64,000 nt of DNA, taken from NCBI GenBank assembly GCA_965216315.1, contig CBDCFN010000016.1:2176001-2240000 (forward strand), given 5' to 3'. The notes under the pieces are model-generated. The model was given only the letters and a program-made list of their open reading frames with translations. It was not told the DNA's origin and ran no database searches. The DNA is from a bacterium (lineage in GTDB: Bacteria; UBA10199; 2-02-FULL-50-16; JAJFLM01). This document shows positions 9,584 to 44,124 of this stretch, piece after piece. Every line of letters starts with the position of its first letter. Within the stretch, counting starts at the first letter, position 1. The translations under genes were made by a program, and so were the position numbers.

Positions 9584-9650
9584 GATCACTCCTCCTCGCC
9601 TCGGAGCGCGCATGGCTGTAGAGGCGGATTAGGCCCCTAATCTATTAGCA

Positions 9651-9730: not shown

Positions 9731-10510
9731 TTAGCGCCCCCGCCGACGGCGCAGCGGATCTTCACGATCAATCGCGTGACGACTACGTAATTGATTTTCC
9801 GTAAGGCGATCATAGTGCTCACCGACCCGACGAATGAAATCCGCGTTGATCTCGCGGGCGTCGCGGCGCAGCTCGCGGTCCCCTGTCTCCCACTGTTCGA
9901 TCACCCAATCGCGAAACGACAAACGGGCTTCCAACGGTTGGGCGCGCATCTCGGGCCGCACGTCTTCAATCAAATGCTCAACGGCCAACAAGCGTTGCTC
10001 ACGCGCACGTTGCTCGGGCGTCCGATGATCCACGTTAGGGCCACCCTGCCGTTGCCCGACAGGTGTTGTGTGGGACGTGTTGCCGCGCGCCAGGATTCTA
10101 CGGGCGGCTAATAAGGCAATGTTCCCCAGGACCCCCACGGCCAACACCCAAGGCCACGGCGTATCCAACCATGAGGTTGATTGCTGCGGCGGCACGTAGC
10201 TCGACGATCCCGGATGTCCCACTCCGGGTTGCAAGGGTTGATTCGGTTGCGCCGGCGGCGTCGGCTGTAGATGCGTCACCGTCGGATTCGGGGTGGTCGA
10301 ATTGCCCGCGGTATTTGTCACCGGTTGTGGCGAAGCGGCATCCGTCACGACGGGGTTAGGCTGCGGGTTCGGCGGCGTTGGGTTTGGGGTCGTCGGATTC
10401 GGTGCCGTTGGGTTTGGCTCCGGCGTCGCACAGGGCACAATCGCCTGCGCTCCGGGACTCCAACGCACTTGCTGGCCGGCTCTGTCAAAACATTGGTTTT
10501 CGGGCGGCAT
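9731..10510 (-). CDS. Family B single-pass membrane protein with C-terminal helical module and Arg-rich tail
   Basis: Start moved to MPPENQC (10510) by homology with the neighbour and to avoid overlap. Pro/Thr linker, TM WPWVLAVGVLGNIALLAARR, module PLEARL...W...LRRDA...INADFIR, ends RRRRGR. Confidence 0.85.
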   Translation of the reverse strand: MPPENQCFDRAGQQVRWSPGAQAIVPCATPEPNPTAPNPTTPNPTPPNPQPNPVVTDAASPQPVTNTAGNSTTPNPTVTHLQPTPPAQPNQPLQPGVGHPGSSSYVPPQQSTSWLDTPWPWVLAVGVLGNIALLAARRILARGNTSHTTPVGQRQGGPNVDHRTPEQRAREQRLLAVEHLIEDVRPEMRAQPLEARLSFRDWVIEQWETGDRELRRDAREINADFIRRVGEHYDRLTENQLRSRHAIDREDPLRRRRGR

Positions 10511-10524
10511 ATCGTTCCCTCTCT

Positions 10525-11304
10525 TTAACGAGCGCGATCCCGGCGGCGCTCTTCGTCCCGGCGTTCGGTTGGTAAATGCTCCGCCATCCATGGGTGACTG
10601 GCGCGGCGGCTTTCCAGTACGGACCGAATCACTTCGGACGTCACCGGATCGGTCTCGGCCCGACCATCACGCAGCAAAGGTTGGCGCCGCCAAGTACTCA
10701 GAATATCAGCGCGCAATTGCGGGAGACTTTCACTGATCGCGAGTCGCGCCTCGGCCGGTAAAGATTCATAGTTAGGGATTTCGGCGCGAATCATCCGGTC
10801 CAAAGCCGCATCGCGCTCGCGCGCCATCTCTTCAATCGATCGTTCGACGACCGGTTCAGGGTTCGTCGCAACAACCACTTCATTGTCGGCTCCGTTGGTA
10901 GCTCCATTCGGCGACGCATTGCGCCGGGATAAAAAGTGGCGGGCAGTAAAAAGTCCGATATTCCCAAACAACAAGGCGCCCACCGGCCAGTACCAATTAT
11001 TGGCAAGCCAATCCAGCGTCGAACCGTTTGAGCCGGATGAATTATTCGAAGGGGAATCGGAAGGCGTATCGGTCGACGTTGCCGTACCGGTATAAGGCAC
11101 GAGTCGTCCCTGCGCGGCATCCCAGATGACCATCTGGCCATTCTGCATAAAGGGCTGGTGGGTCGCCGGAGTCGTCGTATTGGTATCCGTACCGGCATCG
11201 GCCGTTGAACCGGCATCCGTCGTGCAGGCCACGATACTCTGAGTCGCTTGGTCCCAACGAACCTGTCGACCACCTTGATCAAAACAAAGGGCATCTGGGG
11301 GCAT
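10525..11304 (-). CDS. Family B single-pass membrane protein (paralogue of 9731..10510)
   Basis: Starts MPPDALC (RBS GGAGAAGG); TM WYWPVGALLFGNIGLFTARH; LPAEARL/PLLRDG module; ends RRRDRAR. Confidence 0.85.
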   Translation of the reverse strand: MPPDALCFDQGGRQVRWDQATQSIVACTTDAGSTADAGTDTNTTTPATHQPFMQNGQMVIWDAAQGRLVPYTGTATSTDTPSDSPSNNSSGSNGSTLDWLANNWYWPVGALLFGNIGLFTARHFLSRRNASPNGATNGADNEVVVATNPEPVVERSIEEMARERDAALDRMIRAEIPNYESLPAEARLAISESLPQLRADILSTWRRQPLLRDGRAETDPVTSEVIRSVLESRRASHPWMAEHLPTERRDEERRRDRAR

Positions 11305-11327
11305 GATAAATTCCTTCTCCATCTAGG

Positions 11328-11354
11328 TTATCGGCAGGAATTTGCGGAAGTTTC
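11328..11354 (-). promoter_or_regulatory. sigma-28-like bipartite promoter motif (variant -35)
   Basis: GAAACTTC-CGCAAATTCCT-GCCGATAA. Confidence 0.7.
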
Positions 11355-11392
11355 GCAAAATTTATCAATAATTTGCAGCTTTTGAGAAGATG

Positions 11393-13831
11393 CTAACGAC
11401 CGCTACGGCGGCGTTCATGGGGGTCTCGGCGGTCTTCCCGATTCCGCAACCAAATGCCCTGTTCCGGATGGCGCTGCTGATGGATTTCGACGACCTGATG
11501 AATAAAGCGGGCATTCATATGTCGGGCGCCATCGCGCAAGAGCGGGTGAGAACGCCAGAGCCGTAACGCCTCTTGCTGCATCGACAGCCGGGCCTCGGCG
11601 GGCAGCGCTTCAAAGTCCCGTACCTCTTGTGCCAACAGCGCTTCCGCGCGCGCTCCCATATCGAGGGTAAGCAAGCTCACCATCACCTGGGGATGGCGCG
11701 CTTGATAGAGTTCGATTCCCTGCCGCACGAAGGCCGTATTCACCGTCGTCGCCCCGTCGCGTAGTAAGGGGAAGTCCCGCCACAAGCGCTCGATCTCCCG
11801 CGCGATCTCATCGCGAATCTCGGTATCCAACTCTTCATAACCGACAATCTCTTCGCTCATCGTACGACGAATATCACGCTCGTAACCGTGATAAAGATGG
11901 GCCTCCTGATACATCGGCATGGCAAGATGCGAACGCACCTCACTCAACATCGTCGTGCGCAGGCCGGCGACCTCTCCAAAGGGATGAGTGCCTTGTTCGT
12001 GTTGTTCAACGCGCGATTCATAATACATTTCCAAGAACAGGCGCGGAAACAGTCCATCCGGTGTACGTCCCTCGGCCCGCCACAAGAGATCACGTTCCGG
12101 CTGACTTAACGCACTATAAACACTCAAGGCCTCACGCTGTTCACGTTGTTGGGCGGACGGACTCAAGGCCTCATACGCCCGGTTATACAATAGTTGTCCT
12201 TCACCCCACGGTGTCACCCAAAGGCGTTGGTGCATCTGCGCCATGCGGCTCGTTTCGATATGCTCGAGCTTCATGATATCCGTCAACGGAGTGCCGGAAC
12301 GGGCGAAACGATCGTGACGCAGTATATCGAGGGCACGCTCGACGTTCACTCCCTCAGCGCTTAAGAAACTGCGCGCATCCTCACGATAGTCACCGGTCTC
12401 GCTCATTTGTGAAATCATGATTGTCATCGCCTTCGGCTGCGCAAACGAAGTGGCATCATCATGATACATGACCGCCTCAAAATGACGGCCCACTTCCAAT
12501 ACCCGATTCCGCTGGGGATCGAGAATAAGCTCTTGGCGGGATCGGCCCGAACCGAAAATTCCGCGGACCCAGGCATGACGCCCCCCCGGCACCTGGCCTT
12601 TTTCCATGCGGGTACCTTCGACACCGATGTACTGGTAGGCCACCTGCAACAACATACCCCGCTCGTTACAGACGCCCCGTTCAATAAAATCACCAAGACG
12701 ATACATCTGGTTGGGAATACTCGAGTAGAGCCGGGCATGATCATAAGGCACATAATCGCGGACGATACGCCAGGCGCGCTCGGCCGCCTGTTGTTGAGTG
12801 ATGCGGCCGGCATCAAGTTCCTGCCGGATGGGTCCCATGTGAGCCTCGAGAAAACGCTGTAAGCGCGGGTCGGCAAAATCAACCAACACGACCTTGCCGC
12901 TACCATCGGTCCCGGAGACATTGATTGATCGGTCGGTAAATTGAGGGTTTTGAATGCGGGGGTGAATGAACTCAGCAGTCAGATCAATTTGGCGATCGCG
13001 CACGGTCAGCACTTGATCGACCGGCCATTCCGGCCGCCCCTTGATCAGCATGCGCACGCGTTGCTGACCGTCGGAGCCGGTGAACAATTCAACGCGGCCG
13101 ACATATTTTTCCTTAGAGTTTTCGATGAATAATTCAACGACACGCCCGTCGGCGACTTCCCGTAGTCGTTCGTTAATATCACGTTCCTGGACCCGAGGTA
13201 CTGAGCTCTCGGCCACGGAAATTGAACTGGAAATACTTTGAACCGGCTGGGTAGGCGTCAGAGACCCCCCATCAACATGACTCCGCCACTCCAGCTGAAC
13301 GCTCCCCAGACTCAGCACATCGCCATCACGAAGCGCAACCGAATTTCCATTGACCGGTATCTCGTCGCGATTGCCGCGCACGGGATCATCGCGAAAAATA
13401 ATCGTGCCGTTCGTACTGCCCAAATCACGGATGGAATAGTTGCCCCGCCCATCATGATGGATTGCCGCATGGCTCCGCGAAATGCGCGCGACACCGCTGA
13501 TACCGGAGTAAGCAATTTGGACTCTATCTGCACCAGGGTAACGCCCGAGCGTCATCGTATGCGCACGGCCCCTGGGAAAAGGCACCGAGATCGGATTGCC
13601 CGTCGCCGTATGCGTTCCGATTGCTGTCGTTACAGCAGGGACCAACGGTTGAGTCAGGGTCCCGGTCACCGGTTCGGTCGTAATATATTGATCCTGTCCG
13701 TTGATGGACGTTGTAGGCGCCGCGAGACTCCCGGGGGGCTGGGAAACAACAAGAGAACCGGCCGCCGGGCTCCACACCCACCACTGGCCGCTCATTTGAA
13801 AGGGTTGATAAACAGGTGTGACTGGGGGCAT
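11393..13831 (-). CDS. FHA domain + transglutaminase/papain-like (Cys-His-Asp) domain + 2 helical modules, Arg-rich tail
   Basis: FHA motifs LGR...ISRSHA...IRDLGSTNGT; putative triad GVCNERG / RHAWV / ILDP; ends RRRSGR. Confidence 0.8.
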   Translation of the reverse strand: MPPVTPVYQPFQMSGQWWVWSPAAGSLVVSQPPGSLAAPTTSINGQDQYITTEPVTGTLTQPLVPAVTTAIGTHTATGNPISVPFPRGRAHTMTLGRYPGADRVQIAYSGISGVARISRSHAAIHHDGRGNYSIRDLGSTNGTIIFRDDPVRGNRDEIPVNGNSVALRDGDVLSLGSVQLEWRSHVDGGSLTPTQPVQSISSSISVAESSVPRVQERDINERLREVADGRVVELFIENSKEKYVGRVELFTGSDGQQRVRMLIKGRPEWPVDQVLTVRDRQIDLTAEFIHPRIQNPQFTDRSINVSGTDGSGKVVLVDFADPRLQRFLEAHMGPIRQELDAGRITQQQAAERAWRIVRDYVPYDHARLYSSIPNQMYRLGDFIERGVCNERGMLLQVAYQYIGVEGTRMEKGQVPGGRHAWVRGIFGSGRSRQELILDPQRNRVLEVGRHFEAVMYHDDATSFAQPKAMTIMISQMSETGDYREDARSFLSAEGVNVERALDILRHDRFARSGTPLTDIMKLEHIETSRMAQMHQRLWVTPWGEGQLLYNRAYEALSPSAQQREQREALSVYSALSQPERDLLWRAEGRTPDGLFPRLFLEMYYESRVEQHEQGTHPFGEVAGLRTTMLSEVRSHLAMPMYQEAHLYHGYERDIRRTMSEEIVGYEELDTEIRDEIAREIERLWRDFPLLRDGATTVNTAFVRQGIELYQARHPQVMVSLLTLDMGARAEALLAQEVRDFEALPAEARLSMQQEALRLWRSHPLLRDGARHMNARFIHQVVEIHQQRHPEQGIWLRNREDRRDPHERRRSGR

Positions 13832-13874
13832 CGTTCAACTCCTATCGCAACTTTAGCCTCCCCACCCTAAATTA

Positions 13875-13901
13875 TTATCGCCGACTTTACCGAAAGGTTT
13901 C
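13875..13901 (-). promoter_or_regulatory. sigma-28-like bipartite promoter motif (degenerate)
   Basis: GAAACCTT-TCGGTAAAGTC-GGCGATAA, same spacing, upstream of the start at 13831. Confidence 0.55.
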
Positions 13902-13907
13902 GCTGCT

Positions 13908-16900
13908 TTAACGTCCCCGACGTCGTTCGTCGCGGCGGCGCTCGGTTGGTAAGTGCGTATCCATCCAGGTATGGTGCGGACGTGCACTCTCCAAGGAGGC
14001 ACGAATAAAATCTCTCGGGATCGGATCTTCAAACGAGCGACCGTCACGCAGTAACGGTTGCGAACGCCACCTACCGATAATATCGGCACGCAGGCGCGGC
14101 AGGCTCTCGGTGATCGAGAGTCGCGCTTCGGCCGGCAAGGAGTCGTAGTTAGGAATCTCCGCCCGGATCAACTGGTCCAGACGCCGTTCCCGCGCGGCGA
14201 GGCGATCTTCGACCGACAATTCCGGGGTCGGCGCCGGCTCGGGCGTCGGTGTTACTACGGGGGTGTGACTGGACGCTGCCACCACATGCGCGCCGCCGTT
14301 TCCACCGAGGGCCTGGACATGGGCCGAGATGACTTCGGCACTGCGCGTACTCGTCAAGCGATCCCCTCCGCTCGTCAACACGGCATCAATATAGGCATCG
14401 GCAAAGCGTTTGCGCAGGGTCTCACGATCCGTTGCCGAGGGATTCGCATCCCACAGCTGGGCGAAACTCGCATCGGTCCGATGTTCGGAGATAAAGTTTT
14501 CCACGGCCTCGTGCGCCCGGAACTCAAGTGTCAAATCGCGCGGCGTGACAATGCCACCACCGCCATTTTCAATCGAACGATCGGCCGCTCGGGTCAGTAT
14601 CGTCGTGATTTCACGCTGCTGATCGGCGAGCGTTCCCAATTCACGTCCGCGTCCATGATAGATGGAGGCAAGATGCTCGATAGCACCGGGTTCAAAGGTT
14701 ACACTGTTGCCGTTAGTGCGCGTTCTCAATAAGTCTTGGGCCGCGGTCTGGACGATCTCTTGGACCACGCCGCGGTCGCCTTCGAGTCTTCCGGCTGAGC
14801 CATTGGCGCCGTTCGAAACAACCGGAGTCGCGCCGTTGCCGGAACCATTGGCCCCATTGCCACCACCCGGTTGCGCACTCGGCGCCACGGGTGCATCGGC
14901 GCGCGGACCGGATCCCGGATCACGATAGCCCCCACGGTGTTCCCCTTGGGGATTCAAGGGATCAATTCTTCCGCCTGCTGGTTCGCGATAGGCCTCGTAA
15001 AAGGCATCTAAAATGCGGTCTTGGATGCGGCGATTATTCTCGATCCCGCCTTCCAGCAATTGAGTGAGTTCCCGCTGCACAGACTCGACACTATGACCGG
15101 TGCGCTCCGAAACCACACGAACGACGTCTTCCGCGGTTATTTGAATATCACTCCGGTCGTGTCCCTGCGTCATATTCGTAACGACGGCATCCATTAAGTT
15201 AATATGCGCACTCGGCGGGGCTCCACGTTCGGAAGCCCCTAAAGCGGTCAAGGCATCCTTGGCCCCATCAGTGATGTCGACGCGTTCATAGCGAAGCCGG
15301 TTAATGCGTCCTTCGGCACCGCCCAAGCGATCTCGAATCGCGTGATCAAAGACGCCGCGAACTTCTTGCGGCGTCATCGGGACGACCTCGACCAATTCGG
15401 TACGGCGGAGCAAGTCGGGCGCCTTGCGTTCGATTTCATCGAAGCGCGTTGAATCGAAAATAAAGTGGAGGTTTTCGTAGCGCGGATCCTTGCCTTCCAG
15501 GATTTCATACATCTGGGCGATCAAGTTAAGGGGCTGATTGCCGGGGCCCATTCCGGCCTCGAGAAAACGATCCGCCTCGGTCAGATGGACGATAACGGGG
15601 TGTTCACCCGCCAAGCCATCGAGGGTCCGAAAGAAAATCGTCTGGGCCCCGTTCATCCACGAACCCGCTTGTTGAACGACGCGACTCGCACTGATCTGCA
15701 CGTACCGAACATTACGTCCCTCGAAGGCCTGAACGCCGGAGTTCCCTTGAACCGCGGCAATGGCGGCTGTGGTCACCCCGTGACCTTTACCGGAACCGGA
15801 AGGTCCACCGAGGATGACGTGAGGCATCGAACCGCGGTTAAAACCGCGCAAAATCTCCCGGCCGGTCGGTGACAGGGGTGTACTTCGCGTCCTAAAGTCG
15901 GCGGTCCGGTCTCGAATAATCGGGCTCGAGTCCTGAAAAATATTGCGCCAGTGTTGCCAGACCGCGCGGCCATCACGGTGTCTCAAGCGTCCCCAGGTCG
16001 CCTTCAGAGCCGTGCGCGTGTTGGACAAGAAACTATCGAGTCCGCGTGTCCACCCTTGCTGTTTAGCCATCGCATAGGTCTGAAACAACATCGTCGCACT
16101 CAGGCCGACCATGAAATACAGGCTATACTTCGCGAGCCCGGCCGCTTCGAGTTGGGCATCCAGGCCGGTACGTTGCATGCCGAGCTGATCCGTGCGGGCG
16201 TCATCCACCGCCAACTGCGGTTGGATAAAAGTGCGGAGGCTATTGGCGATTTGCAACGTTTCCGCGTTGGTAAAATAAGGGTTGTAGGTCCCTTCGCGGG
16301 TAATATCACTCGCCACAATCTGGTGATCGGCACGAATCGAGTTCGGCGCGATTCCCGTCAGTGTAGAAATAAGATTCCGAATGCGGTTGGCATTCCCCCC
16401 CTGACTGAAACTGGATAACAGGCGCACGACGCCGGAGCGTTGCGGGGACATACAATATTCACCGGTCTCGATGCCGCCAAGTTCGAGGAGCGTCAAGATC
16501 TGGTCGTCCCTTAAGCTCATCCCGAGCGGTTGTGACCCACCTATCCCTTGAGCGCTGCAAACAGCGCCACTCCGTCCGTCACTAAAAACGATCCACGCGG
16601 GCTGACCCGTCTCACCATCGCGTGAGCGGCCAATGACTGCTTGAACACCTCCGGTAGGACCTGTTGCCCCATGTCTCAAGAGGGCTTGCTGCAAGTCCGT
16701 TGAACTCAACGGATTCTCGGTGCCACCAAGGGCACGCGCCAAATGGGTCTCCGCTAATTGAGAAATCGTCGTCGCCACGGCGCGCGCCGTGGCTGTCTTG
16801 CGGTCACCTGACACGACGGAAGACACCGCCGTTTGAATGGCCGTGGCTCGGCTGTCCGCCGGCAAACGTAACGAATTGATTCCAATCGCCACGACGCGAT

Positions 16901-17303
16901 TAAACTCCTGCTCCGTCAGCGCATTACTTCCACTCGTCGCCGAGCTGTGAATTTGCGTATAACCGGGCAGGCCGGTCCAATTAGGAATTAAATTCGCCGG
17001 GCTATACTGGCCGTTTTCAATCGCATGCATCTGGGCGTACACACGTTCCAGTTCTGCTGACGTCGGATTGCGTTCCCCGGGGAGTAAGGTGTAGTTGGGA
17101 TCGGGTCGGAGATAGGCCTTGCCATCGGTCCCGATCACAACTCGTTGGGCGCCCACCAGCGAGCGGTCTCGGGTCGGGTCGCCGAGAGGAACATGCAACG
17201 GTACGCTACAGGTCGTACTGCGCGTCGCCGTCCCTTGACAGGCGGGAACCGGCTGTACGGAAATGCCGCTATTGTTGTATGAAACTATCGGTGGTGGCGT
17301 CAA
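13908..17303 (-). CDS. Membrane-anchored protein with a degenerate ClpA/B-D1-like AAA+ domain, helical module and Arg-rich tail
   Basis: TTG start with RBS AAGGAG; TM YSLYFMVGLSATMLF; P-loop GPSGSGKG; Walker B-like VHLTE; LLRR; ITDGA; ITAEDVVRVVSERTG; ends RRRGR. Confidence 0.75.
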   Translation of the reverse strand: MTPPPIVSYNNSGISVQPVPACQGTATRSTTCSVPLHVPLGDPTRDRSLVGAQRVVIGTDGKAYLRPDPNYTLLPGERNPTSAELERVYAQMHAIENGQYSPANLIPNWTGLPGYTQIHSSATSGSNALTEQEFNRVVAIGINSLRLPADSRATAIQTAVSSVVSGDRKTATARAVATTISQLAETHLARALGGTENPLSSTDLQQALLRHGATGPTGGVQAVIGRSRDGETGQPAWIVFSDGRSGAVCSAQGIGGSQPLGMSLRDDQILTLLELGGIETGEYCMSPQRSGVVRLLSSFSQGGNANRIRNLISTLTGIAPNSIRADHQIVASDITREGTYNPYFTNAETLQIANSLRTFIQPQLAVDDARTDQLGMQRTGLDAQLEAAGLAKYSLYFMVGLSATMLFQTYAMAKQQGWTRGLDSFLSNTRTALKATWGRLRHRDGRAVWQHWRNIFQDSSPIIRDRTADFRTRSTPLSPTGREILRGFNRGSMPHVILGGPSGSGKGHGVTTAAIAAVQGNSGVQAFEGRNVRYVQISASRVVQQAGSWMNGAQTIFFRTLDGLAGEHPVIVHLTEADRFLEAGMGPGNQPLNLIAQMYEILEGKDPRYENLHFIFDSTRFDEIERKAPDLLRRTELVEVVPMTPQEVRGVFDHAIRDRLGGAEGRINRLRYERVDITDGAKDALTALGASERGAPPSAHINLMDAVVTNMTQGHDRSDIQITAEDVVRVVSERTGHSVESVQRELTQLLEGGIENNRRIQDRILDAFYEAYREPAGGRIDPLNPQGEHRGGYRDPGSGPRADAPVAPSAQPGGGNGANGSGNGATPVVSNGANGSAGRLEGDRGVVQEIVQTAAQDLLRTRTNGNSVTFEPGAIEHLASIYHGRGRELGTLADQQREITTILTRAADRSIENGGGGIVTPRDLTLEFRAHEAVENFISEHRTDASFAQLWDANPSATDRETLRKRFADAYIDAVLTSGGDRLTSTRSAEVISAHVQALGGNGGAHVVAASSHTPVVTPTPEPAPTPELSVEDRLAARERRLDQLIRAEIPNYDSLPAEARLSITESLPRLRADIIGRWRSQPLLRDGRSFEDPIPRDFIRASLESARPHHTWMDTHLPTERRRDERRRGR

Positions 17304-17384
17304 TTCCCTCTCCTTTGGCTTAGAACCCCTTCTAATGCCGATTGAAAGACCTGGGTCTCCCGATTCTTTCTATTCTCTATTTAA

Positions 17385-17411
17385 TTATCGGAAAGAATTC
17401 GCCGATGTTGC
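17385..17411 (-). promoter_or_regulatory. sigma-28-like bipartite promoter motif
   Basis: GCAACATC-GGCGAATTCTT-TCCGATAA. Confidence 0.7.
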
Positions 17412-17562
17412 TTCGAATCTTGACGAAGCTTCAAAAAAATTCCGCGACTTTGAAAAGAAGATAAAACTAAATAATATCAATAAGTTATAGAAATCCCTTC
17501 CGATGAGTTTTCATCGGCGCCGGCACCTGATCGAGTTGTCTACAAAACGGGAAAAGAGACGG

Positions 17563-20500
17563 CTAGGAAGGTAAACTCGAACGCATCAGGCCGACGAACG
17601 CAGGGTCAATATCACTGGCACCGCCCCGCAGCAACGGCTGCCGTTCCCATAAGTTGATAAGGTGTTCAACGGCCCGACGCCGTGCCGCTTCATCGCGCGC
17701 CGCCCAGTCATCAAGTTCATCGGCAAGAATGGCCTCGACCTTGGCTTCACGGGTCAGCGGTGGTTTTACAAATAGACTGACGAAGGCTTCCGTAATCTCC
17801 GGCGCCCCATCACGCAAGAGTTCATGGCGTTCCCACATCGCAATAATACGCTGGACCTCCACTTGTTGCTGGGGGGCATCCAGTGAATCCCAGTTAGGGG
17901 ACACGGTCGCAAGAATCGCGGCGACCTTGTCTTCACGGGTCGGTTCCGGTGCGGACTCCGGCTCTGGCGGCGCAATGACGGCGCGGACAAAGTCCTCCGT
18001 AATCTCCGTCACACTCACATCCTGTCGCTGCGCCCACTGATCGAGAACTTGCGCCACAAGACTTTGCTGCGCCTGAGCGTCCTGCTCGTCCCAATCCGGT
18101 GCCACCTCGGCAAGAAATTGGGCGACCTTTTCTTCAGAGCTCGGCTCCGGCGGCTTCACAAAGAGACGCACGAAAGCTTCGGTAATCTCCGTCGCTCCAT
18201 CGCGTAACATTTCGTGGCGCGCCCACATTTCAATAATGCCGTGAATCTCACGTTGCTGGGCGGCACTGTCGTATGAATCCCAGTCGGGAGAAACCACGGA
18301 AAGAATCTGCGCCACTCTTTCTTCGCGGCTGATGCGCGGCTCTTGACCCTTGATCATAAAATGCGCTTCGGGATGCTGCGTTAAATACAGCTCCGTCATG
18401 CTGCGCACAAAGTCGTCGTTGATCTCCGTCGCTCCCGCGCGCAAGAGCGGAATCTTTTCCCATTTATTCAGGATGTAGTCACTCAAGACCTGGTCCTTAT
18501 CCTCTTGAGGTTGATAGTTCTCCAACAACTCGTAAAGCGCGCGATCGACAGTAAAATGTTGAAAATGTTGCGCATGCTCGGTGACGAGAACCACTCGCGA
18601 TCCGGGACCACTCTGGGGCGCACTCAACGGGCTGTCGCCGTAGGCTTGATCCCAATCCTGAAGCGCCAGATCACTGGCCAACAGGGCCTGATAGGAGGGC
18701 ATTTCCGTGAGCGCCTTGACCACGCGCATCGCACTACCGATGCGGTGGCTCTCTTCGAGCGTCAATATTTCGCTGACCCCAATGTCGGATTGCTGATCGG
18801 GATGGACTCTTTCCTTGGCGGCCAATAGATCATTCATCGCCTCTAAGAGACGGGCGCGCATTTCGTTCCCTTCAGGGAGGAAATAGTACACGTTATGAAA
18901 CTGATCGTGCTTGTCTTGAAAAAGCCGGCGAATCACGCGTCCACGCGGTGGCGGTTGCGTCGCACCTGATGGCGGCAACGGCGGAGGCTCCGGTGGACGA
19001 ATTTCATTAACAAGTGGCAGCGGTTCGGCCTCGCCGTCGTCAACCGCGGCAACATCCGGCTCCGATGAAACGATATCGTCATCATCGACACCCAACAACT
19101 CGACGTCATCAACATTGGCATATTCGTCATCATCCGCGTCAAACGCGGCGATCCCCACTTGGACCGCCATATGGGCGTGAAAATCCGATCGCAAGCCCGC
19201 GGGATGAGCCACCGGATAGGTCCTGAGATCGACTTTGCGGGTACGGATCCTAAAATAAGCCCTTAAATACGCCTCGGGAAGTCCCTCTTGGGGCGACGCA
19301 TCAAGATCGACCCCCTCTTGCGCCCAGAACTGTGCCTTCACAACATGGTCGAGATAACCGTAGATCTGCACGGCCGCCGTCAGCTCACGCGGATGATGGA
19401 CCAACGTGCGGACGGCTTCGGAATCATGTTGACTGATAAATAAGAGCAAGGGGAGCAGTTCCAACACGCGGTCGCTCTGCTCCATCACGAATTGACCGGA
19501 ATCATCGTGATCGGCCAACGTTTCCCAGGTCGTAAAAAATAAACGTAAATAAGCCAGGGGCAATTCCGCGCCGCGTTTTCCCTCGATCGTCCAGAAGGCC
19601 GCACGCTGCTGTTGCGTCATGCGTTCCCACGCACGAATCGCCGCCTCACGAATGATGTTCTGCTTGGCCTCTTCCTTATCCTGATAGGCCACCATGGGCT
19701 CGGATTGATGCGCATCCGTCGGTAATAACGCCGTAATGTAGTGATGCACCCCTTGACTGCGAAGGGTCCGCAGCTGCTGCAAGCGCGACCGAATCGATTC
19801 TTCAAAGTTCTCACGATCGACCAAACGATCATCGTGGATGGACTTGGGATCCAACTCATAAGCAATCAAGAGATCGAGGTCTTGATACGCCGCCAAGGCA
19901 TCTTCGAGGAGTTTCTTTTGTTCCCCTAAATTATTGGCTTCGATCGTCGCGGTGAGGTCTTGGATAGCCCCCTGAAGCCGGGTCTCACGGATCCGGCGAA
20001 TTTGCGTCTCGCGTTCCGGCCCTGCCGAGCTGCCACTCCAGAAATAACCGAGCATGACATCGGAACCGAGCTCCGGATCGACGGGCCGCTTGCGCGGCAT
20101 GGCTGAATGCTGCTGCGGCATGCCCGTGGGATCCAACGGATAATCCGGCGCGGATTCAAAGGTATCGGGCGCCACCGTTTCCAGACCCAACAAGGCACTA
20201 CCCGTATAGCGCAAGAGCTTGTTCCCCATCACGGAAATGACATCCTGGGACTCAAGCTTGAGGTAGCGTTCACTCGAAACCTTGAGCGGCTTGCCATCAC
20301 GAATCACAGTCGTCCCAAAATCCGATTCATTATCAATGAGCCAGTAGCTGTCGTCGGGAAGAATCCGCACTTCGGCCTGAAGATCAGATACCAAATCATG
20401 AACGGCTTTTTTCTCGGGGTTGATCCGCCAATGGCCGTCCTTGACCTTGCGACCGATTCCAAACAGGTGTTGGACCGGTCTTTTTTCCAGGTCGTGAATC

Positions 20501-20937
20501 GGCAGGCGTACGGCGGTCGCTTGGGGGGCCGGCGTCGGCTCCTCCTGTTGGGCCTTACGGGCTAAAAACCAATTGCGAATCTGGCGGCCGAAGAGAATGG
20601 CCGTCCCGACAACCGCAACCGCAACACCAATACCGACGGACTTGGCTTCGGGAGAGCAACCCGTCATCATCATCGCACTGGCGACGAGAGGAATGAATTC
20701 CGCCCGCGAGGGAGTCCGCGCGCGTTCCGGTGTCCGGACGAGTAAATGCTGTGCCGGGCTGGCGACCGGCGCTGACAGTGCCGTATCAGGAGCCGGAGGC
20801 GCAGTGGTTAATTCGGTATTAAGGGGAAGTCCCTGAGTCGCGGGCGTCGACGTGGACGTCGAGGCGAGCACGCTCGAACCCATCCCTTGGGAGAGACTCA
20901 ATAAATTCATGCTCGTTCCGCCGGCTAGTAAATTCAT
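17563..20937 (-). CDS. TM + degenerate FHA domain + five tandem helical modules
   Basis: 1124 aa (alternative start 20910); Ser/Thr-rich N-terminus, TM VGIGVAVAVVGTAILFG, FHA-like GIGR...WLIDNESDFGT, acidic/Pro linker, 5 repeats of W..H.LLRDGA.EITEAFV. Confidence 0.8.
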   Translation of the reverse strand: MNLLAGGTSMNLLSLSQGMGSSVLASTSTSTPATQGLPLNTELTTAPPAPDTALSAPVASPAQHLLVRTPERARTPSRAEFIPLVASAMMMTGCSPEAKSVGIGVAVAVVGTAILFGRQIRNWFLARKAQQEEPTPAPQATAVRLPIHDLEKRPVQHLFGIGRKVKDGHWRINPEKKAVHDLVSDLQAEVRILPDDSYWLIDNESDFGTTVIRDGKPLKVSSERYLKLESQDVISVMGNKLLRYTGSALLGLETVAPDTFESAPDYPLDPTGMPQQHSAMPRKRPVDPELGSDVMLGYFWSGSSAGPERETQIRRIRETRLQGAIQDLTATIEANNLGEQKKLLEDALAAYQDLDLLIAYELDPKSIHDDRLVDRENFEESIRSRLQQLRTLRSQGVHHYITALLPTDAHQSEPMVAYQDKEEAKQNIIREAAIRAWERMTQQQRAAFWTIEGKRGAELPLAYLRLFFTTWETLADHDDSGQFVMEQSDRVLELLPLLLFISQHDSEAVRTLVHHPRELTAAVQIYGYLDHVVKAQFWAQEGVDLDASPQEGLPEAYLRAYFRIRTRKVDLRTYPVAHPAGLRSDFHAHMAVQVGIAAFDADDDEYANVDDVELLGVDDDDIVSSEPDVAAVDDGEAEPLPLVNEIRPPEPPPLPPSGATQPPPRGRVIRRLFQDKHDQFHNVYYFLPEGNEMRARLLEAMNDLLAAKERVHPDQQSDIGVSEILTLEESHRIGSAMRVVKALTEMPSYQALLASDLALQDWDQAYGDSPLSAPQSGPGSRVVLVTEHAQHFQHFTVDRALYELLENYQPQEDKDQVLSDYILNKWEKIPLLRAGATEINDDFVRSMTELYLTQHPEAHFMIKGQEPRISREERVAQILSVVSPDWDSYDSAAQQREIHGIIEMWARHEMLRDGATEITEAFVRLFVKPPEPSSEEKVAQFLAEVAPDWDEQDAQAQQSLVAQVLDQWAQRQDVSVTEITEDFVRAVIAPPEPESAPEPTREDKVAAILATVSPNWDSLDAPQQQVEVQRIIAMWERHELLRDGAPEITEAFVSLFVKPPLTREAKVEAILADELDDWAARDEAARRRAVEHLINLWERQPLLRGGASDIDPAFVGLMRSSLPS

Positions 20938-21022
20938 AGAACTGTAGGACTCCGCATCCGTCAGGAACTGTATTAATTAGATAATAAATACAGGTAGTTA
21001 CTAAAATTCATCTCGCAAGCCC

Positions 21023-21049
21023 GTATCGGCACAAGATTGCGAAAGTTGC
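21023..21049 (-). promoter_or_regulatory. sigma-28-like bipartite promoter motif
   Basis: GCAACTTT-CGCAATCTTGT-GCCGATAC. Confidence 0.75.
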
Positions 21050-21085
21050 TAAGCCGGAGGGGTCAAATGTTGACGAAAGTAAACG

Positions 21086-21127
21086 AAAAAGCCCCGTGAG
21101 CTGGCGGTTAAACCGATCTCACGGGGC
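21086..21127 (-). terminator. Intrinsic terminator (repeat-family hairpin)
   Basis: GCCCCGTGAG...CTCACGGGGC stem followed by TTTTT on the minus strand, 30 nt after the stop at 21158. Confidence 0.75.
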
Positions 21128-21157
21128 GTTCCCTCTACTAAACTACTTGTTTCGGAC

Positions 21158-23242
21158 CTAGCGGCCTCTGCGGAGGCGATCGCGACGATCACGCGCCCGG
21201 TCGGTATCCAGATGTTCAAGTCCGGAGAGACCGTGGCCGCTGCTCGCGACGTGCGTGGCAATCTCAGTCCGCATCGCTTCGCTGATCCGGCGATGAATTT
21301 CCGCTTCACGACGGTCCGTGTTCCAATCAGCATGGTCGCGTTCCACTTGGCTGCGCGCCTGCGTCTCGAACGCACTAAAGAGGGGACGAAGCTCTTGAAT
21401 CGCGGAGAGGCGCGCCTCTGCCGGCAAAGCTCCATAACCGGGTAATTGGGAACGAAGATGCAGTTCGATCGCGGCATCGGTTCCACTGGAACCCTGGAGT
21501 GCCGCACGATCCCGCAAGAGACCGTCTAACTGCGCATCCGTCCAACCGGCTCCGCGCAGCGAAGTCAGTTCCGCCGCATCAAAACGATCGGCGTAGGCAT
21601 CAGCTGGAGGCGGTGTCGCGCCCGCGGGTGGATTATTCGCCGGTGGTGGTGTATTCCCTGCCGGCGGTGGCGTCGAACCACCGGAGCCGTTGCCGCCGCT
21701 GCTTCTACCGCGTATCGGTGCATCGGCATTGCCGCGTCCGACCGCATCGCGGACCTGCTCAATAAGATTATTCACTTGGTCTGTATTCGGAGCCGAGGGG
21801 CGGTCTGACGTATTCGCGCTACGAACCGCCGCTTCAAAACTACTCCGGTCCTCGCTACTGAATTGACTGAGATCACGTCGATCCGACTTGAGCAGGGCGG
21901 CTTCCGCACGTCCCGCTTCACTATCGGCATAAACTTGCCGTAAGACATGATCCGTCGCCGCATCAATCATCCCGACTGGGGGAACACCGTCAACTTGACC
22001 TGTTGTCGGACGACCGGCGGCATCCCAACGGCGCATCGCTTCTTGAGCAATGACGCTGTCGTAAATTCTCCGGCCCTCACCATCCTTTAAATTCGGATAG
22101 CGCATGCGGACAAAACTCTGGATGTGCGATTCACGCACCCGGTTTCTGGTGGCTTCCTGAGTCGCGGCGCGATTCTGGAGAAAGCGCCTACCAAGATAGA
22201 TACCCCCTAAACCGAGGACAACCGCTCCCGGGATGGCAATATTAGAATTGTCACTAAACCACGAGGAAATGCGCTGCCATACAGTCGGCTCCGGCGTTGG
22301 TGCCGGTGGCCGGGCATTGACCGTGATCTCCCGGGTCTGGATCGTCCCATCACCGTCACGGACGGAAACGGTATGCGTCCCGACACCCAGCGTCGGAACA
22401 TAGGTTCCGGTGCCGGTCAGGGCTTGAACACGGGTTTCACCGACGTACACGGCGGTTCCTTCCGGCCAAGCGGACAACCCGGCATCGCTCGGACGTATCG
22501 TCAAACCGGTCGGCGTCTCCCCTTCCGTCATCGTCAGGGCCGTAAGATTCCGCGTCGTACGCGGCGGCACGCCTTGGTTCTGATCCAAGAATACAGCGAT
22601 TCCTAAGAGCGCGTGCATATAACGGATCAGCTTTTCACCCTTGGCCTGTTGGGTCGCACGACCGCGGAAGGCGCGGGTCACAAACTCAATAAAGTCACGA
22701 CGGGAAATCACGTCGGCGTTGCCATCGGGATTGAAGCGATCGCCGACATCCGGATTCAGGCCGCGGAAAATATTGATGACGTTGAGGGCATCATAAAGCT
22801 CGTAGTTGGTCACCTGTTGTGGGGTCAGCGTATTCAAGTAGGCCGTAACCGCTTCTTCACCACCATCGGTCCGACGGCGGCCGACTTCGGCCCAGGTCGC
22901 CTGTGCTGCCGTCGCATTGTACCCAAGCTGACTGGTCAGACAGGTCAACAGCGCCTGGTCGTTCGCATAGAGTATTCCGACGTTAAAACCGCTGCGTTCT
23001 GAGGTGTTTCCTCGGCGGTCTGCCGTTGCCGAAAGATAACGGGTAAATGAATCGAAGCTCCCTGAAGGAACCGTGTAGCGTCCCGATAAATCCGGATCGA
23101 GATTGCTGATCTGGTTCGGCGGCATTTGGTTGGCACCACCGTGCTGGGGTGCGACACCAAGTCGCTGATAGATTGCCGCAAGGCCACGCGCCTCACTTAA
23201 AATTGCTGGATTAACTTGATTCGGTCTACATTCATTAACCAT
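21158..23242 (-). CDS. Single-pass membrane protein: EF-hand-like and Ig-like N-part, C-terminal LPAEARL module, Arg-rich tail
   Basis: 694 aa; NPDGNADVISRRDF, GTHTVSVRDGDG, TM IAIPGAVVLGLGGIYLGRRF; ends LRRGR. Confidence 0.8.
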   Translation of the reverse strand: MVNECRPNQVNPAILSEARGLAAIYQRLGVAPQHGGANQMPPNQISNLDPDLSGRYTVPSGSFDSFTRYLSATADRRGNTSERSGFNVGILYANDQALLTCLTSQLGYNATAAQATWAEVGRRRTDGGEEAVTAYLNTLTPQQVTNYELYDALNVINIFRGLNPDVGDRFNPDGNADVISRRDFIEFVTRAFRGRATQQAKGEKLIRYMHALLGIAVFLDQNQGVPPRTTRNLTALTMTEGETPTGLTIRPSDAGLSAWPEGTAVYVGETRVQALTGTGTYVPTLGVGTHTVSVRDGDGTIQTREITVNARPPAPTPEPTVWQRISSWFSDNSNIAIPGAVVLGLGGIYLGRRFLQNRAATQEATRNRVRESHIQSFVRMRYPNLKDGEGRRIYDSVIAQEAMRRWDAAGRPTTGQVDGVPPVGMIDAATDHVLRQVYADSEAGRAEAALLKSDRRDLSQFSSEDRSSFEAAVRSANTSDRPSAPNTDQVNNLIEQVRDAVGRGNADAPIRGRSSGGNGSGGSTPPPAGNTPPPANNPPAGATPPPADAYADRFDAAELTSLRGAGWTDAQLDGLLRDRAALQGSSGTDAAIELHLRSQLPGYGALPAEARLSAIQELRPLFSAFETQARSQVERDHADWNTDRREAEIHRRISEAMRTEIATHVASSGHGLSGLEHLDTDRARDRRDRLRRGR

Positions 23243-23359: not shown

Positions 23360-25381
23360 TTAGAAGTTAAGGCCACCGCCGCGGTTTCCACCACCGCCGC
23401 CGCCTTGGCGACGGATGCTAACCGTACCGGCGGTCACCGAGGATCCAACCAGAGTGGTCCCACTCAACGGCTGAATCGTAACGCTGAAGTCTTGACGACG
23501 TCCGGCGCGTCCACCCGTATTCCAGGTCTTCGGGCGTCCGGTCAGCGTGATGTTATTCACACCGGCCGTCAGCGTCACATCTTCCGTGTGAGTTCCGACG
23601 GTGATCCGTGCAGGACCGGCGATGTCGCTCGTTACGCGAAGCGTAATCGAATCATTCGCGTAGTAACTGGCTGTCGAAGTCACGCTCGCCGAGCTCAGCG
23701 TCGCATGTGCGGGTGCTGCCGGAGTCATGGCAACTGTCACGTTCCCTAAGTTCAATGAACCGAGCGTCACAAAGACGTTTGCCGAGTTACCGGCGGTCAA
23801 GCCCAATGCGGTAACCTGAGACTTGGTCAGGTTCACATCAAGAGATCCGCCGACCGGAATATTATTCGGGACCTCAATCGTCGCAATCACGCGACCATTG
23901 CTGGTCTTAACCTGAATCCGCGAACCGGCCGCAATCTCCGTCCGGGCCACCACGCGCCCGATCCGGCCAATAATCGTGTCATCCGTCGCCGCATCGCGTA
24001 CAGCCTCATCGGTAACGGTGAGATTATGGGGTTCCCAGGTCTGCGGATTCTGCGGCGTCTCTGAGCGATTGATCTCGATGACAGCCGTCCAGTAAACGGT
24101 TCCACTCGAATCACGGACTTCAACCGTGTTGCGATCTTCCGTCAACAAACCTTCATCAACGACCAGCGGATTGTTACCCGACGGGCGGATATTGGTATCA
24201 CGTCCGTTAACGCGAACCGTGGACCCAGGTCTCCATCCGCCTTCAGGCGCAGTGAAGGAACCTTCGGCACCCGGTGCGACACGCGTCGTTCCAGCATCAT
24301 GGGGTCCAACCTCCCGGGTCCGCTCATCCGCAACCGGAGGTGTCACCCCGCCCGTGTCGCTGGAACCACCGAAGTACCAGGTCAAACCACCCATGACGCG
24401 GTGATCAGCTTGTCCAAAACTACTGCTCCCGCGGTTGGAGGGATTAAACCAAGTGTATCCCGGTGAATAAGCAAGATTTAACTGAACGGCATGATTCTGA
24501 CCGGCAATGATATCATAGCCGAGGCCGAGAATTCCGCGCAGGTTCATGACGGTACCACCACCAGCATCAATGGAATTACCAACCGCTGGATTCCACAGTC
24601 CACAAAGGCCCGTGTTGTAGCTCGAACCGGCGTCATTACCGCGGCCTAATTCGCCTTCAGTCCCGCTGGGTGTCGTCTCGGTGCAGTTGCCCATCGAGGA
24701 CAGGCTACCGACGCCAAACTCACCACCGGCAAAAAGGCTGAGGTTTCTCGCCGCCGTCGCATGAAAAGGATAAAAGCGCGCGAGGGCTCCCAAGTGCCAC
24801 ATAAAACTGGAAGCACTCGAATCAAAGCTCTCGCCACCGGGAGTCAGGCCGGTACCAGCTAAATGCTGTCCGCCGATGCCGGTGTAGAAGTTTCCTGCAA
24901 TCCAGGGAGTATTGGGACTAAAAACGTCTAGGTGAAACTGGAGGTCACCGCCGCCGCCGCTATGAGCAACATCGCCAGAACCGAATTGACCAAAACCGCG
25001 GAGACCGAGACCATAGCGAACCCGCGTGCTGCGATCCGTCGAAGTTGGATTGGGATCTGTGGTCGGGTTGGGATCCGTTGTCGGATTGGGATCCGTCGTC
25101 GGATTGGGATCCGTCGTCGCGTCTGCGACGATACGTGAATCAGCGGTATCGCCGTTCAGTTGGGCATAAGTAAATGTCTGACCATTGACCACGACAGTAT
25201 AATCGGTCGGGTTAACCGTTGTCCCGCCAGTACTCGCAGCCGTTGCCGTATCCCTGATTCGAGCTGCCAATTGCCGCGCTTCTGCAACCGTTAATACATT
25301 TGCATCATTATTGCGTTCAGTAATTGCAACTGATACAGGATCAGCTCCGCTCCGAACAACGCTATAGTTAGTATCTGCCAT
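23360..25381 (-). CDS. Outer-membrane beta-barrel-like domain + Ig-like domains, no signal peptide
   Basis: RBS AGGAGG before ATG 25381; amphipathic Gly/aromatic strands from RYGLGLRG to GGLTWYF; Thr/Val-rich beta-sandwich-like C-terminus. Confidence 0.7.
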   Translation of the reverse strand: MADTNYSVVRSGADPVSVAITERNNDANVLTVAEARQLAARIRDTATAASTGGTTVNPTDYTVVVNGQTFTYAQLNGDTADSRIVADATTDPNPTTDPNPTTDPNPTTDPNPTSTDRSTRVRYGLGLRGFGQFGSGDVAHSGGGGDLQFHLDVFSPNTPWIAGNFYTGIGGQHLAGTGLTPGGESFDSSASSFMWHLGALARFYPFHATAARNLSLFAGGEFGVGSLSSMGNCTETTPSGTEGELGRGNDAGSSYNTGLCGLWNPAVGNSIDAGGGTVMNLRGILGLGYDIIAGQNHAVQLNLAYSPGYTWFNPSNRGSSSFGQADHRVMGGLTWYFGGSSDTGGVTPPVADERTREVGPHDAGTTRVAPGAEGSFTAPEGGWRPGSTVRVNGRDTNIRPSGNNPLVVDEGLLTEDRNTVEVRDSSGTVYWTAVIEINRSETPQNPQTWEPHNLTVTDEAVRDAATDDTIIGRIGRVVARTEIAAGSRIQVKTSNGRVIATIEVPNNIPVGGSLDVNLTKSQVTALGLTAGNSANVFVTLGSLNLGNVTVAMTPAAPAHATLSSASVTSTASYYANDSITLRVTSDIAGPARITVGTHTEDVTLTAGVNNITLTGRPKTWNTGGRAGRRQDFSVTIQPLSGTTLVGSSVTAGTVSIRRQGGGGGGNRGGGLNF
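25043..25118 (-). repeat. 18-bp coding tandem repeat (TTDPNP x4)
   Basis: Encodes TTDPNPTTDPNPTTDPNPTTDPNPT. Confidence 0.9.
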
Positions 25382-29756: not shown

Positions 29757-29781
29757 AGACGCTAAATAGATTGAAATTATC

Positions 29782-29822
29782 CCCCCGTGAGATAAGGAAT
29801 TATCTCACGGGGGTTTTATTTT
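29782..29822 (+). terminator. Intrinsic terminator
   Basis: CCCCCGTGAGATAA-GGAA-TTATCTCACGGGGG followed by TTTTATTTT. Confidence 0.85.
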
Positions 29823-29940
29823 CGAAGAAAGTTGCAAATCTAATACCTTCGGCTTTAGCTCTTTGATTTTATTAATTAATTCGCCTATTCCGAAATGAGG
29901 AGTGTTTGCATCAATCTCACGATAATTCCCGCTGTTACTA

Positions 29941-29967
29941 GCAACTTTTTGTAAACCCACCCGATAA
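29941..29967 (+). promoter_or_regulatory. sigma-28-like bipartite promoter motif (plus strand)
   Basis: GCAACTTT-TTGTAAACCCA-CCCGATAA, oriented toward ATG 30055. Confidence 0.8.
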
Positions 29968-30054
29968 TTTCACACAGCGAGCGAAAGGTTTATTCAAAGT
30001 GAATCTGTGCGAGCTGAATCGCTATTGGACATAGGACTTTTAGGAGGACGCACC

Positions 30055-32403: not shown

Positions 32404-32429
32404 GCCAGTATTGGGGGAGGTAACATACG

Positions 32430-34847: not shown

Positions 34848-34906
34848 GGGGGATTTAATTTACATTAGTTTAAATCCCTCCTAACCTCCCTTTACAAAAG
34901 AGAGGA
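34822..34906. repeat. REP/REPIN doublet that supplies the hemW stop codon
   Basis: Arms identical to those of 2968-3066; TAA at 34845-34847 lies inside the element. Confidence 0.85.
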
Positions 34907-34909
34907 ATG

Positions 34910-37579: not shown

Positions 37580-37684
37580 GACGGAGCTTTAGTCGATATA
37601 CATTGAAATATCAAGTCGACCGGGCAAATGGTACCCCTACGATTTTTGTTTAATTCATTACTGACTATAGGTTACATAGAATTC

Positions 37685-39655: not shown

Positions 39656-39676
39656 CGGTTTGTGAGTTCTCAAATG

Positions 39677-39710
39677 AAAAGCGCCCGCAGCCTGAATCGG
39701 TTGCGGGCGC
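39677..39710 (-). terminator. Intrinsic terminator hairpin between convergent hemE and hemH
   Basis: GCGCCCGCAACC...GGCTGCGGGCGC followed by TTTT on the minus strand. Confidence 0.75.
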
Positions 39711-44122: not shown

Positions 44123-44124
44123 AA

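Follow-up and report, generated by a model that had tools for sequence, protein, structure and literature searches.

A small helical module of about 60-65 residues is present in 11 copies in six proteins encoded, all on the minus strand, in a 64,000-nucleotide stretch of bacterial DNA (NCBI GenBank assembly GCA_965216315.1, contig CBDCFN010000016.1, positions 2,176,001 to 2,240,000 of the forward strand; hereafter the window). The source genome (G000) is 2.96 Mb in size and 98.3% complete. The results described below lead us to conclude that the module represents a domain family that is real, new and very narrowly distributed, and that it is accompanied by a fixed Arg-rich tail. With respect to function, we judge the chances to be about evenly balanced that the module is an undescribed cytoplasmic unit of co-assembly, that is, an adaptor or docking domain that would bring its carriers together.

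Results

A C-terminal module in seven proteins of one gene cluster

The six carriers in the window lie head to tail and are designated A to F after the genes at 9731 (A), 10525 (B), 11393 (C), 13908 (D), 17563 (E) and 21158 (F). A first-pass annotation of the window had proposed 11 copies of the module in these reading frames; all six open reading frames (ORFs) exist, and each of the copies could be located and aligned (alignment A1). The copies lie at 9788-9991 in A, at 10588-10809 in B, at 11681-11881 and 11456-11653 in C, at 13965-14186 in D, and at 18361-18555, 18145-18330, 17962-18141, 17755-17940 and 17566-17754 in E, where they form a tandem array (17566..18555) with short Pro/Glu-rich linkers between them. 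The copy in F (21248-21478) is partial. When the proteins were compared all against all by BLASTP in a database of nine proteins, the C-terminal ends were the only similarity common to the six, as seen for B and D (59% over 115 aa, E 1e-40), C and E (27% over 143 aa, E 7e-12), B and C (30% over 122 aa, E 4e-10), A and C (39% over 95 aa, E 7e-9), and B and F (37% over 107 aa, E 2e-8).

Because alignment A1 was made from the copies themselves, profiles from which one protein at a time had been left out (B and D jointly) were run against all 25,241 ORFs of at least 50 aa in the genome. Five of the six carriers were recovered in this way, with E values of 7e-25 (C), 8e-29 (protein E), 4e-12 (B), 3e-10 (D) and 2e-5 (A). 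Protein F was missed with the default filters; with the filters off it was matched only at E 0.09, over the N-terminal half of its copy ('LPGYGALPAEARLS'), which agrees with the earlier description of this copy as partial. Each of the leave-one-out runs also matched a seventh carrier, X12 (E 1e-5 to 3e-6), which has both the module and the tail and is encoded 12 kb upstream of the window (G000:C16:2163565-2164716, minus strand). The original count of six carriers is therefore correct for the window and one short for the genome. Apart from these seven proteins, no ORF of the 2.96-Mb genome matched the module profile.

In every carrier the copies lie at the C-terminal end; in the proteins that have a hydrophobic segment (A, B, E and F, and D with a weak one) they are downstream of it, as had been noted at first pass. 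The 38 identities in 48 residues that had been reported for B and D are exact for the best 48-aa window, and 48 of 74 residues are identical over the whole module. Pairwise module identity is 0.66 for B and D and 0.67 for the E2-E4 pair. Outside their last 115 aa, B and D are not similar, a result that bears out the domain shuffling proposed in the first-pass annotation, as does the exchange of the module in orthologous proteins described below.

Sequence, predicted fold and selection

Only W33 and R40 are nearly invariant in alignment A1. The module pattern consists of a hydrophobic helix 1, the sequence Y/F/W-x-x-L-P-x-E-A-R at the start of helix 2, W-x-x-x-P-L-L-R-D-G-A in the loop between helices 2 and 3, and F-V/I-R in helix 3; conservation is focused in the bundle (W, PLLRDGA, FV) and not in the tail. 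AlphaFold2, when applied to A1 (66 aa), generated a model with a pLDDT of 92.1 and a pTM of 0.77 in which helices occupy positions 2-10, 19-35, 37-40 and 48-61. From this model the module is confidently predicted to be a small three-helix bundle, with one short additional helix, that is devoid of enzymatic features.

No known family could be assigned to this bundle. A Foldseek search of the PDB gave no row at E <=0.001 (best E 2.7), and the best result of a wide VIA-align search (Z 5.2) involved generic helical bundles only, so that no fold assignment follows from it. The weak rows of these fold searches include sigma-factor and other helical nucleic-acid-binding domains, all of them insignificant, and FADD death-domain chains were found among the Foldseek rows only at E 5-8 with a TM score of 0.41. 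No match to the module was found in NCBIfam or by PADLOC (10 proteins scanned), the ESM Atlas contained no usable match for residues 645-812 of C, and phmmer searches of PDB sequences with the whole of C and the whole of D gave 0 matches. No Pfam family matches the module; even with E values up to 10 allowed, the 11 copies gave no repeated match to any one Pfam-A family. The first-pass proposal of a new domain is upheld by these searches and by the protein search described below.

Comparison of the B and D modules gave a dS of about 1.8 and a dN of 0.29 (dN/dS about 0.16). Judged by these rates, the two modules are old copies under purifying selection and not a recent conversion tract, because most synonymous sites differ and few non-synonymous sites do. 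A complex prediction for the C-terminal units of D and B returned 0.18, 0.54 and 0.12 against a mark of 0.32, without controls, and speaks neither for nor against binding.

Carrier proteins, the Arg-rich tail and topology

Gene A (9731..10510, within an ORF that reaches 10591) encodes a 259-aa bitopic membrane protein if translation starts at MPPENQ, and protein P0005 of the protein search corresponds to this 259-aa form. It consists of a transmembrane (TM) segment (10091-10147), the module and an Arg tail (9734-9787). Gene B (10525..11304; 259 aa from MPPDAL) is a paralogue of A (29% over 282 aa) with a weakly hydrophobic TM-like segment at 10927-10983 and a tail at 10528-10587. Gene C (11393..13831; 812 aa) encodes an FHA-transglutaminase-like protein with an FHA domain (13304-13552; Pfam E 3e-10), a Cys-His-Asp core at about 12497-12709, the two modules and a tail (11396-11455). 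Relatives of the core carry Pfam Transglut_core, and residues C388, H419 and D438 are invariant in 7 homologues, as are the FHA residues G96, R97, S118, H121 and N141. The genome contains 17-18 Ser/Thr kinase genes, none of which is in the gene island that holds the carriers. Gene D (13908..17303; 1131 aa) encodes an AAA+ ATPase (Pfam AAA, 15414-15818) that has a weak hydrophobic segment at aa 395-413 and a tail at 13911-13964. Gene E (17563..20937; 1124 aa) encodes a TM segment (20590-20646), a weak FHA domain (20233-20457), a helical middle region and the array of five acidic modules. Gene F (21158..23242; 694 aa) encodes an N-terminal domain, a TM segment (22190-22246), a module of a second type (type 2, 21917-22126; see below), the partial copy of the module described above (type 1) and a tail (21161-21247). 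In X12 (L019:7562-8674, minus strand; 370 aa, no lysine), a TM-like segment lies near aa 87-105 and a type 1 module at aa 291-351, and the protein ends in the tail RDRERRRRGI.

In A, B, C, D, F and X12, the protein ends 18-29 residues past the module in a tail that mixes Asp/Glu and Arg; tail ends read ...ERRRDERRRGR, ...RRDPHERRRSGR, ...RDRRDRLRRGR and ...RDRERRRRGI. The terminus is RRxGR (or RDRAR, or RRRGI) in six of the seven carriers, E being the only one that lacks an Arg tail. A loose Arg-tail rule selected 15 of the 6,370 genome ORFs of at least 100 aa; six of these 15 are module carriers, and most of the others are short and probably spurious frames. The tails contain 7-10 Arg in 18-29 residues with a net charge of +1 to +5 and are probably disordered. 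The net charge of the modules is from +2 to -10, and each of the five E copies lies between -3 and -10.

A, B, F and X12 are bitopic membrane proteins, and hydrophobic segments are seen in A, B and E and F and, in weak form, in D. Basic (Arg) residues come after every hydrophobic segment. This arrangement would, by the positive-inside rule and given the FHA and AAA+ neighbours, place all of the module copies in the cytoplasm.

Distribution outside the source genome

The profile was used to search 1.84 billion representative proteins, and 12 matches were obtained at E <=0.001. Six of the 12 are the window's own proteins or their cluster representatives. These six include an orthologue of F (P0006, 84% identical) and an orthologue of E (P0013, 93%), both encoded on one other contig of 9 kb. 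Only three of the 12 are convincing foreign carriers: P0008, with an FHA-like start and two module copies; P0011, a homologue of C with one copy; and P0012, with CxxCH motifs, a TM segment, two copies and an Arg-rich end. The foreign copies were examined through whole-protein profile searches.

Three further matches were rejected. P0007, from the dinoflagellate Polarella glacialis, had an E value of 2e-9 in the protein search that is probably inflated by repeats, and its hhalign probability against A1 is 5%. P0007 has a TM helix followed by about a dozen repeats of about 85 aa. P0009 is likewise repeat-inflated and covers only the last 20 profile positions, and P0010, also repeat-inflated, has no single matching stretch.

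The module was not found in 92 other genomes of the phylum, and a pattern scan of 185,579 species genomes gave 161 pattern matches, of which 0 were confirmed. No description of the module or of the island was found among the papers that the literature searches listed, which is not proof that none exists.

Replacement of the module in related clusters

Homologues of C occur in a few metagenome-assembled genomes, among them natural fusions of the carriers. In P0018, a D-like membrane AAA+ protein is joined to a C-like core, and in P0017 and P0019 an F-like N-domain with its TM segment is joined to a C-like FHA-enzyme. The fusions P0017-P0019 suggest that the carriers act together.

The two other genomes of the family, G001 (locus L043, which is also L021) and G002 (locus L044, which is also L020), likewise have the cluster. 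Gene order in G001 agrees with that of the window, with G-, F-, E-, C-, A/B- and D-like genes (G being the gene that follows F; see below). The alignment of C with its G001 orthologue (46% over 566 aa) stops at residue 620 of 812, and that of D (34% over 1051 aa) at residue 1015 of 1131; both residues mark the module boundary. At this place, five neighbouring proteins of G001 have in common a different C-terminal unit of about 118 aa (type 2; identities 30-44%) with a tail of its own. By gene order, size and N-terminus, four of the five are counterparts of F, E, C and D; the fifth, of 355 aa, occupies the A/B place. The type 2 pattern is R-F/W/Y-P-x-L, W-x-x-x-G-R-P and P-E-R-F, and its tail follows RG-x-RAER...RRLAES-x-RE...GGRR. 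In G002, the E-like and C-like neighbours have a third unit in common (type 3; 55% over 104 aa), and the E-like protein terminates in an Arg-rich tail. A type 1 module (E 6e-13) and an Arg/Glu tail also form the end of the gene that lies upstream of P0011 in the metagenome locus L026, and the two L026 copies carry a private signature, W-x-R-F-P-S-L ('RFPSL').

In all four clusters, therefore, neighbouring proteins have one C-terminal unit in common, and the unit differs between genera. The non-module remainder of the proteins is 34-59% identical between genera of the family while the module type differs. Such a pattern would be expected from mutual recognition among the units, or from their co-evolution with a common partner.

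Two proteins carry both types. In F, a type 2-like copy (aa 373-442; 21917-22126, minus strand) directly follows the TM segment; it was matched at 18.5 bits by a profile made from G001 only, and it is the only type 2 copy in this genome. In P0016, a type 2 copy comes after a type 1 copy that is degenerate. Because F and P0016 have both types, differential loss from an ancestor with two types is possible.

One possible hypothesis for the origin of the terminal modules involves an internal helical region ('type 0') at residues ~553-620 of C (window ~11972-12175) and ~425-592 of E. Its pattern, Y-E-A-L...L-W-x-x-x-G-x-x-P-D-G-L-x-P-x-x-F, is conserved in C- and E-like proteins, and its alignment with the module is collinear at an hhalign E of 0.015, which is not significant. 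Type 0 may be the ancestor of the terminal modules.

A solitary paralogue of the C core is encoded elsewhere in the genome (G000:C16:290857-292746, plus strand; 630 aa, 41% identity); it has a TM segment and no FHA domain. Its last ~65 residues resemble the module by eye and fall below the noise with the profile.

The surrounding gene island

The carriers are located in a run of 22 same-strand genes, about 45 kb in length, that extends from G000:C16:2157525 to window position 25381. Among these 22 genes, Pfam recognized only the FHA and AAA domains of carriers C, D and E. The first genes outside the island are TolB at the far end and genes with thrombospondin type 3 (TSP3) repeats at the near end.

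Depletion of Lys extends across the island (window 1434-25381 and L019:1525-19727). Proteins A, B, C, D, F and X12 contain 0-1% Lys and 10-12% Arg, compared with genome medians of 5.0% and 5.8%, and the G001 orthologues are equally Lys-poor. Genome-wide, 109 of 2,063 long ORFs have less than 1.2% Lys; these are often clustered, and some may be wrong frames. The depletion might protect these proteins from an enzyme that acts on Lys, such as the transglutaminase-like C.

Four paralogous orphan proteins with Pro/Val-rich C-termini are encoded on the minus strand at window positions 1434-2756, 3101-4090, 4319-5422 and 8333-9613. Their N-terminus follows M-x-C-(D/E/N)-L-Y-G-A-S...C-R-A-N-P-G-T-A-Y-G-P, and in G001 a gene similar to them lies directly after the D-like gene. 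Many proteins of the island begin with MPP or MTPP or have one or two Cys in the first 10-30 residues, as in MPPENQCFD, MPPDALCFD, MCDSTIQSC, MCNPTTQCC, MTCDPTISVC and MVNECRPNQ (window 10510, 11304, 13831 and 17303, and L019 genes). A short motif, F-x-x-x-G-Q-x-V-x-W...(L/I)-V, is present in A and C, where it lies at the start, and in two places in B. No signal peptide was found on any of these proteins, and their common N-terminal features may be either another element that the island proteins share or an export signal of an unknown kind. Protein G (window 23360-25381, minus strand; 673 aa) is Lys-poor, with PNPTTD repeats and a Gly-rich end that terminates in Phe; G001 has a conserved counterpart (34% over 566 aa), and protein G may be an outer-membrane component of the island.

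Three genes rich in TSP3 (calcium-binding) repeats adjoin the island at window positions 25890-33326 (plus strand), and a TSP3-like gene is found at the equivalent place in G001. Beyond them, positions 33603-50696 contain a housekeeping block with haem biosynthesis, aconitase and a tricarboxylic acid (TCA) cycle operon (succinyl-CoA ligase, succinate dehydrogenase, malate and isocitrate dehydrogenases and citrate synthase).

Discussion

Several observations suggest that the module serves in co-assembly. In the genome, the profile is restricted to this gene cluster, and its unrelated carriers include a core NTPase and an enzyme from adjacent genes. Natural fusions tie the carriers to one another, and in orthologous clusters the module is replaced as a block. 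The B and D modules are under purifying selection, the fold is small, confidently predicted and free of enzymatic features, and the tail is specific to module carriers. The E copies are acidic and the tails basic, and the basic residues that follow the hydrophobic segments would place the modules in the cytoplasm. The pattern also agrees with the features that define effector-associated domains (EADs; PMC7159879), as regards the closeness of neighbouring copies at the level of module type. The adaptor function proposed in the first-pass annotation fits that pattern; the binding itself we infer.

If this proposal is correct, the module would bind either to like copies or to one common partner, and binding would gather D, C and E together with the four bitopic proteins (A, B, F and X12) on the cytoplasmic side of the inner membrane. 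Protein E, with its five acidic, tail-less copies on Pro-rich linkers, would be a candidate for a multivalent hub, to which the basic tails of the six other carriers could supply electrostatic complementarity. The contact surface would most likely consist of the loop between helices 2 and 3 (PLLRDGA) and the P-x-E-A-R turn.

A number of results weigh against co-assembly or against particular steps of this scheme. When the two-module end of C was modelled, two confident bundles and a low-confidence tail were obtained with their mutual arrangement undefined; because the pTM of this di-module was only 0.51, tandem copies are not predicted to pack on each other. As a type 1 copy, that of F is marginal (E 0.09 at best). 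The type 1 and type 2 profiles are collinear over 64 columns with an hhalign E of 0.04 and a probability of 1.3%, and on sequence grounds homology among types 1, 2 and 3 is not established, so that the apparent replacement could instead be extreme divergence. The mean identity of type 1 copies is 0.28 within a genome and 0.23 between genomes, and the C-like copy of L026 is nearest to C1 of the window, which indicates that type 1 copies keep orthology and are not homogenised. The putative hub arrangement is not conserved: in G001 the E-like protein carries a single copy, followed by a tail. Finally, the predicted topology would place the N-terminal regions of A, B, F and D outside the membrane, yet no signal peptide was found on them, and the topology is therefore not secure.

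One alternative, in line with the secretion signal put forward in the first-pass annotation, is that the module and its basic tail constitute a bipartite C-terminal targeting or secretion signal read by one receptor of an export or sorting machine, perhaps an unknown one encoded in the island. Such reading would be analogous to that of BID and its tail by the type IV coupling protein, or of XVIPCD by VirD4. In its anatomy the module resembles BID, in which the helical domain is terminal and has a short positive tail, and of which some carriers have additional non-terminal copies (PMC6509941). As with XVIPCD, the unit is common to otherwise unrelated proteins. The products of the island also include an AAA+ ATPase and many orphan proteins of envelope type. 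Nearly all of its proteins are Lys-poor (0-1% against the genome median of 5.0%), and Lys-poverty is a trait of some translocated effectors. However, PF02534 (VirD4/TraG), PF10412 (TrwB), PF03135 (VirB4) and PF05943 (TssC) had 0 matches in this 98.3%-complete genome, which leaves no marker of a type IV or type VI secretion system among those searched. The carriers, which include the ATPase itself, FHA domains and membrane-anchored proteins, resemble residents and not cargo; their copies are on the predicted cytoplasmic side of the membrane helices, and E holds five internal copies and no tail. Moreover, the module type differs between genera of one family, which would be unusual if a conserved machine read the signal, and three helices in ~65 aa are fewer than a four-helix bundle of ~100 aa would require. 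We consider the secretion proposal unlikely, and most of the probability left to it lies with an unknown machine encoded in the island.

The tail raises another possibility, namely that it anchors the carriers, perhaps together with the module, to a polyanion or membrane surface such as acidic phospholipids, nucleic acid or polyphosphate. Although 7-10 Arg in 18-29 residues and a net charge of +1 to +5 are compatible with such a role, and although the weak fold rows include sigma-factor and helical nucleic-acid-binding domains, the fold matches are all insignificant (Foldseek E 2.7 and Z 5.2 at best), the modules are neutral to strongly acidic (+2 to -10), the tails mix Asp/Glu with Arg and are absent from E, most carriers are already membrane-anchored, and conservation resides in the bundle and not in the tail. 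We therefore regard polyanion binding as highly unlikely. Equally little credence is given to the idea that the module is inherited filler, a remnant of serial duplication and recombination among the genes of the cluster that stabilises the C-terminus as a cap with no role in recognition, because the facts that the copies are old paralogues and that the weak collinearity with type 0 (E 0.015) would allow an origin by internal duplication are outweighed by purifying selection (dN/dS about 0.16), by the retention of one terminal unit on seven proteins with a conserved loop between helices 2 and 3, and by the parallel common unit in each of three related clusters.

One could also envision that the island encodes a machine of a new kind that spans the envelope, serves in secretion, surface assembly or predation and is wired by an exchangeable C-terminal code, a scenario that we hold to be decidedly improbable. 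The code would consist of the helical module and the Arg tail, swapped as a block between genera and private to each lineage, with the AAA+ ATPase as the motor and the FHA-transglutaminase-like enzyme as a phospho-regulated modifier.

If, as proposed above, the module is a docking unit, it would provide a natural case in which one interchangeable terminal tag wires a multi-protein complex, with three genera of one family using different tags on the same set of orthologous proteins. Because each of the three genera has its own tag, the specificity code could be tested directly by module swaps. The module marks those island proteins that belong together, namely an AAA+ motor, a thiol enzyme that would read phosphothreonine and five membrane proteins, and it offers a way into a large gene island, from an uncultured phylum, for which the databases have no explanation.

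Comparison with known systems

The closest parallel is with the EADs (EAD1-EAD10 and relatives) of bacterial NTPase-centred conflict systems, described by Kaur, Burroughs, Iyer and Aravind (2020, PMC7159879). According to that paper, one copy of an EAD is at the N- or C-terminus of the core NTPase and others are on enzymatic or signalling proteins, often the products of a neighbouring gene; the domains are small, non-enzymatic and mostly all-alpha; the copies in adjacent genes are closest to one another, with lineage-specific versions; and homotypic coupling is inferred from architecture alone. The module resembles the EADs in that it is C-terminal on the AAA+ protein D and on C, the product of an adjacent gene, as well as on A, B, E, F and X12, and in that it is small, non-enzymatic and predicted to be alpha-helical, with a coupling that is likewise deduced from architecture alone. 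Closeness of neighbouring copies is seen at the level of module types (type 1 in G000, type 2 in G001 and type 3 in G002) and for B and D, E2 and E4 and the L026 pair; within type 1 as a whole it amounts only to 0.28 versus 0.23, and the C-like copy of L026 is nearest to C1 of the window. Pfam holds EAD families. Unlike members of these, the module has no match to any Pfam model, the named EAD families (EAD1-EAD11) included. Nor did Pfam detect a vWA-MoxR, GAP1, STAND, caspase or trypsin component of EAD systems among the 22 island proteins. Further differences from the EADs are the seven carriers and the five-copy array in place of a pair, the fixed Arg-rich tail, and the predominance of membrane proteins among the carriers.

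In Bartonella Beps, relaxases and toxins, BID and its positive tail together make up a bipartite signal for type IV secretion; PMC6509941 describes BID as an antiparallel four-helix bundle of about 100 aa with a hook, genetically linked to VirB/VirD4. Like BID, the module is helical and C-terminal, has a short basic tail behind it, is found on unrelated carriers, occurs in extra non-terminal copies and varies greatly in sequence. It differs in having ~65 aa with three main helices, and the genome yielded neither a type IV coupling protein nor VirB4; no BID structure was present among the Foldseek or VIA rows, all of which were insignificant.

Two other systems invite comparison. Dockerin and cohesin, which assemble cellulosomes, have different folds and interact extracellularly in a calcium-dependent manner. 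As in that system, a short terminal module is found here on many unrelated proteins and a putative scaffold (E) offers tandem sites; unlike in that system, the hub and its clients carry one fold and are predicted to be cytoplasmic. Adaptors of the Death-like superfamily are six-helix bundles of about 80-90 aa; the model of the module has only three to four helices. As a docking unit, the module would become one more family among the few operon-coupling adaptor domains that are known. The tests made here placed it in no named EAD, Death-like, BID or XVIPCD family; its mode of action would be like that of the EADs.

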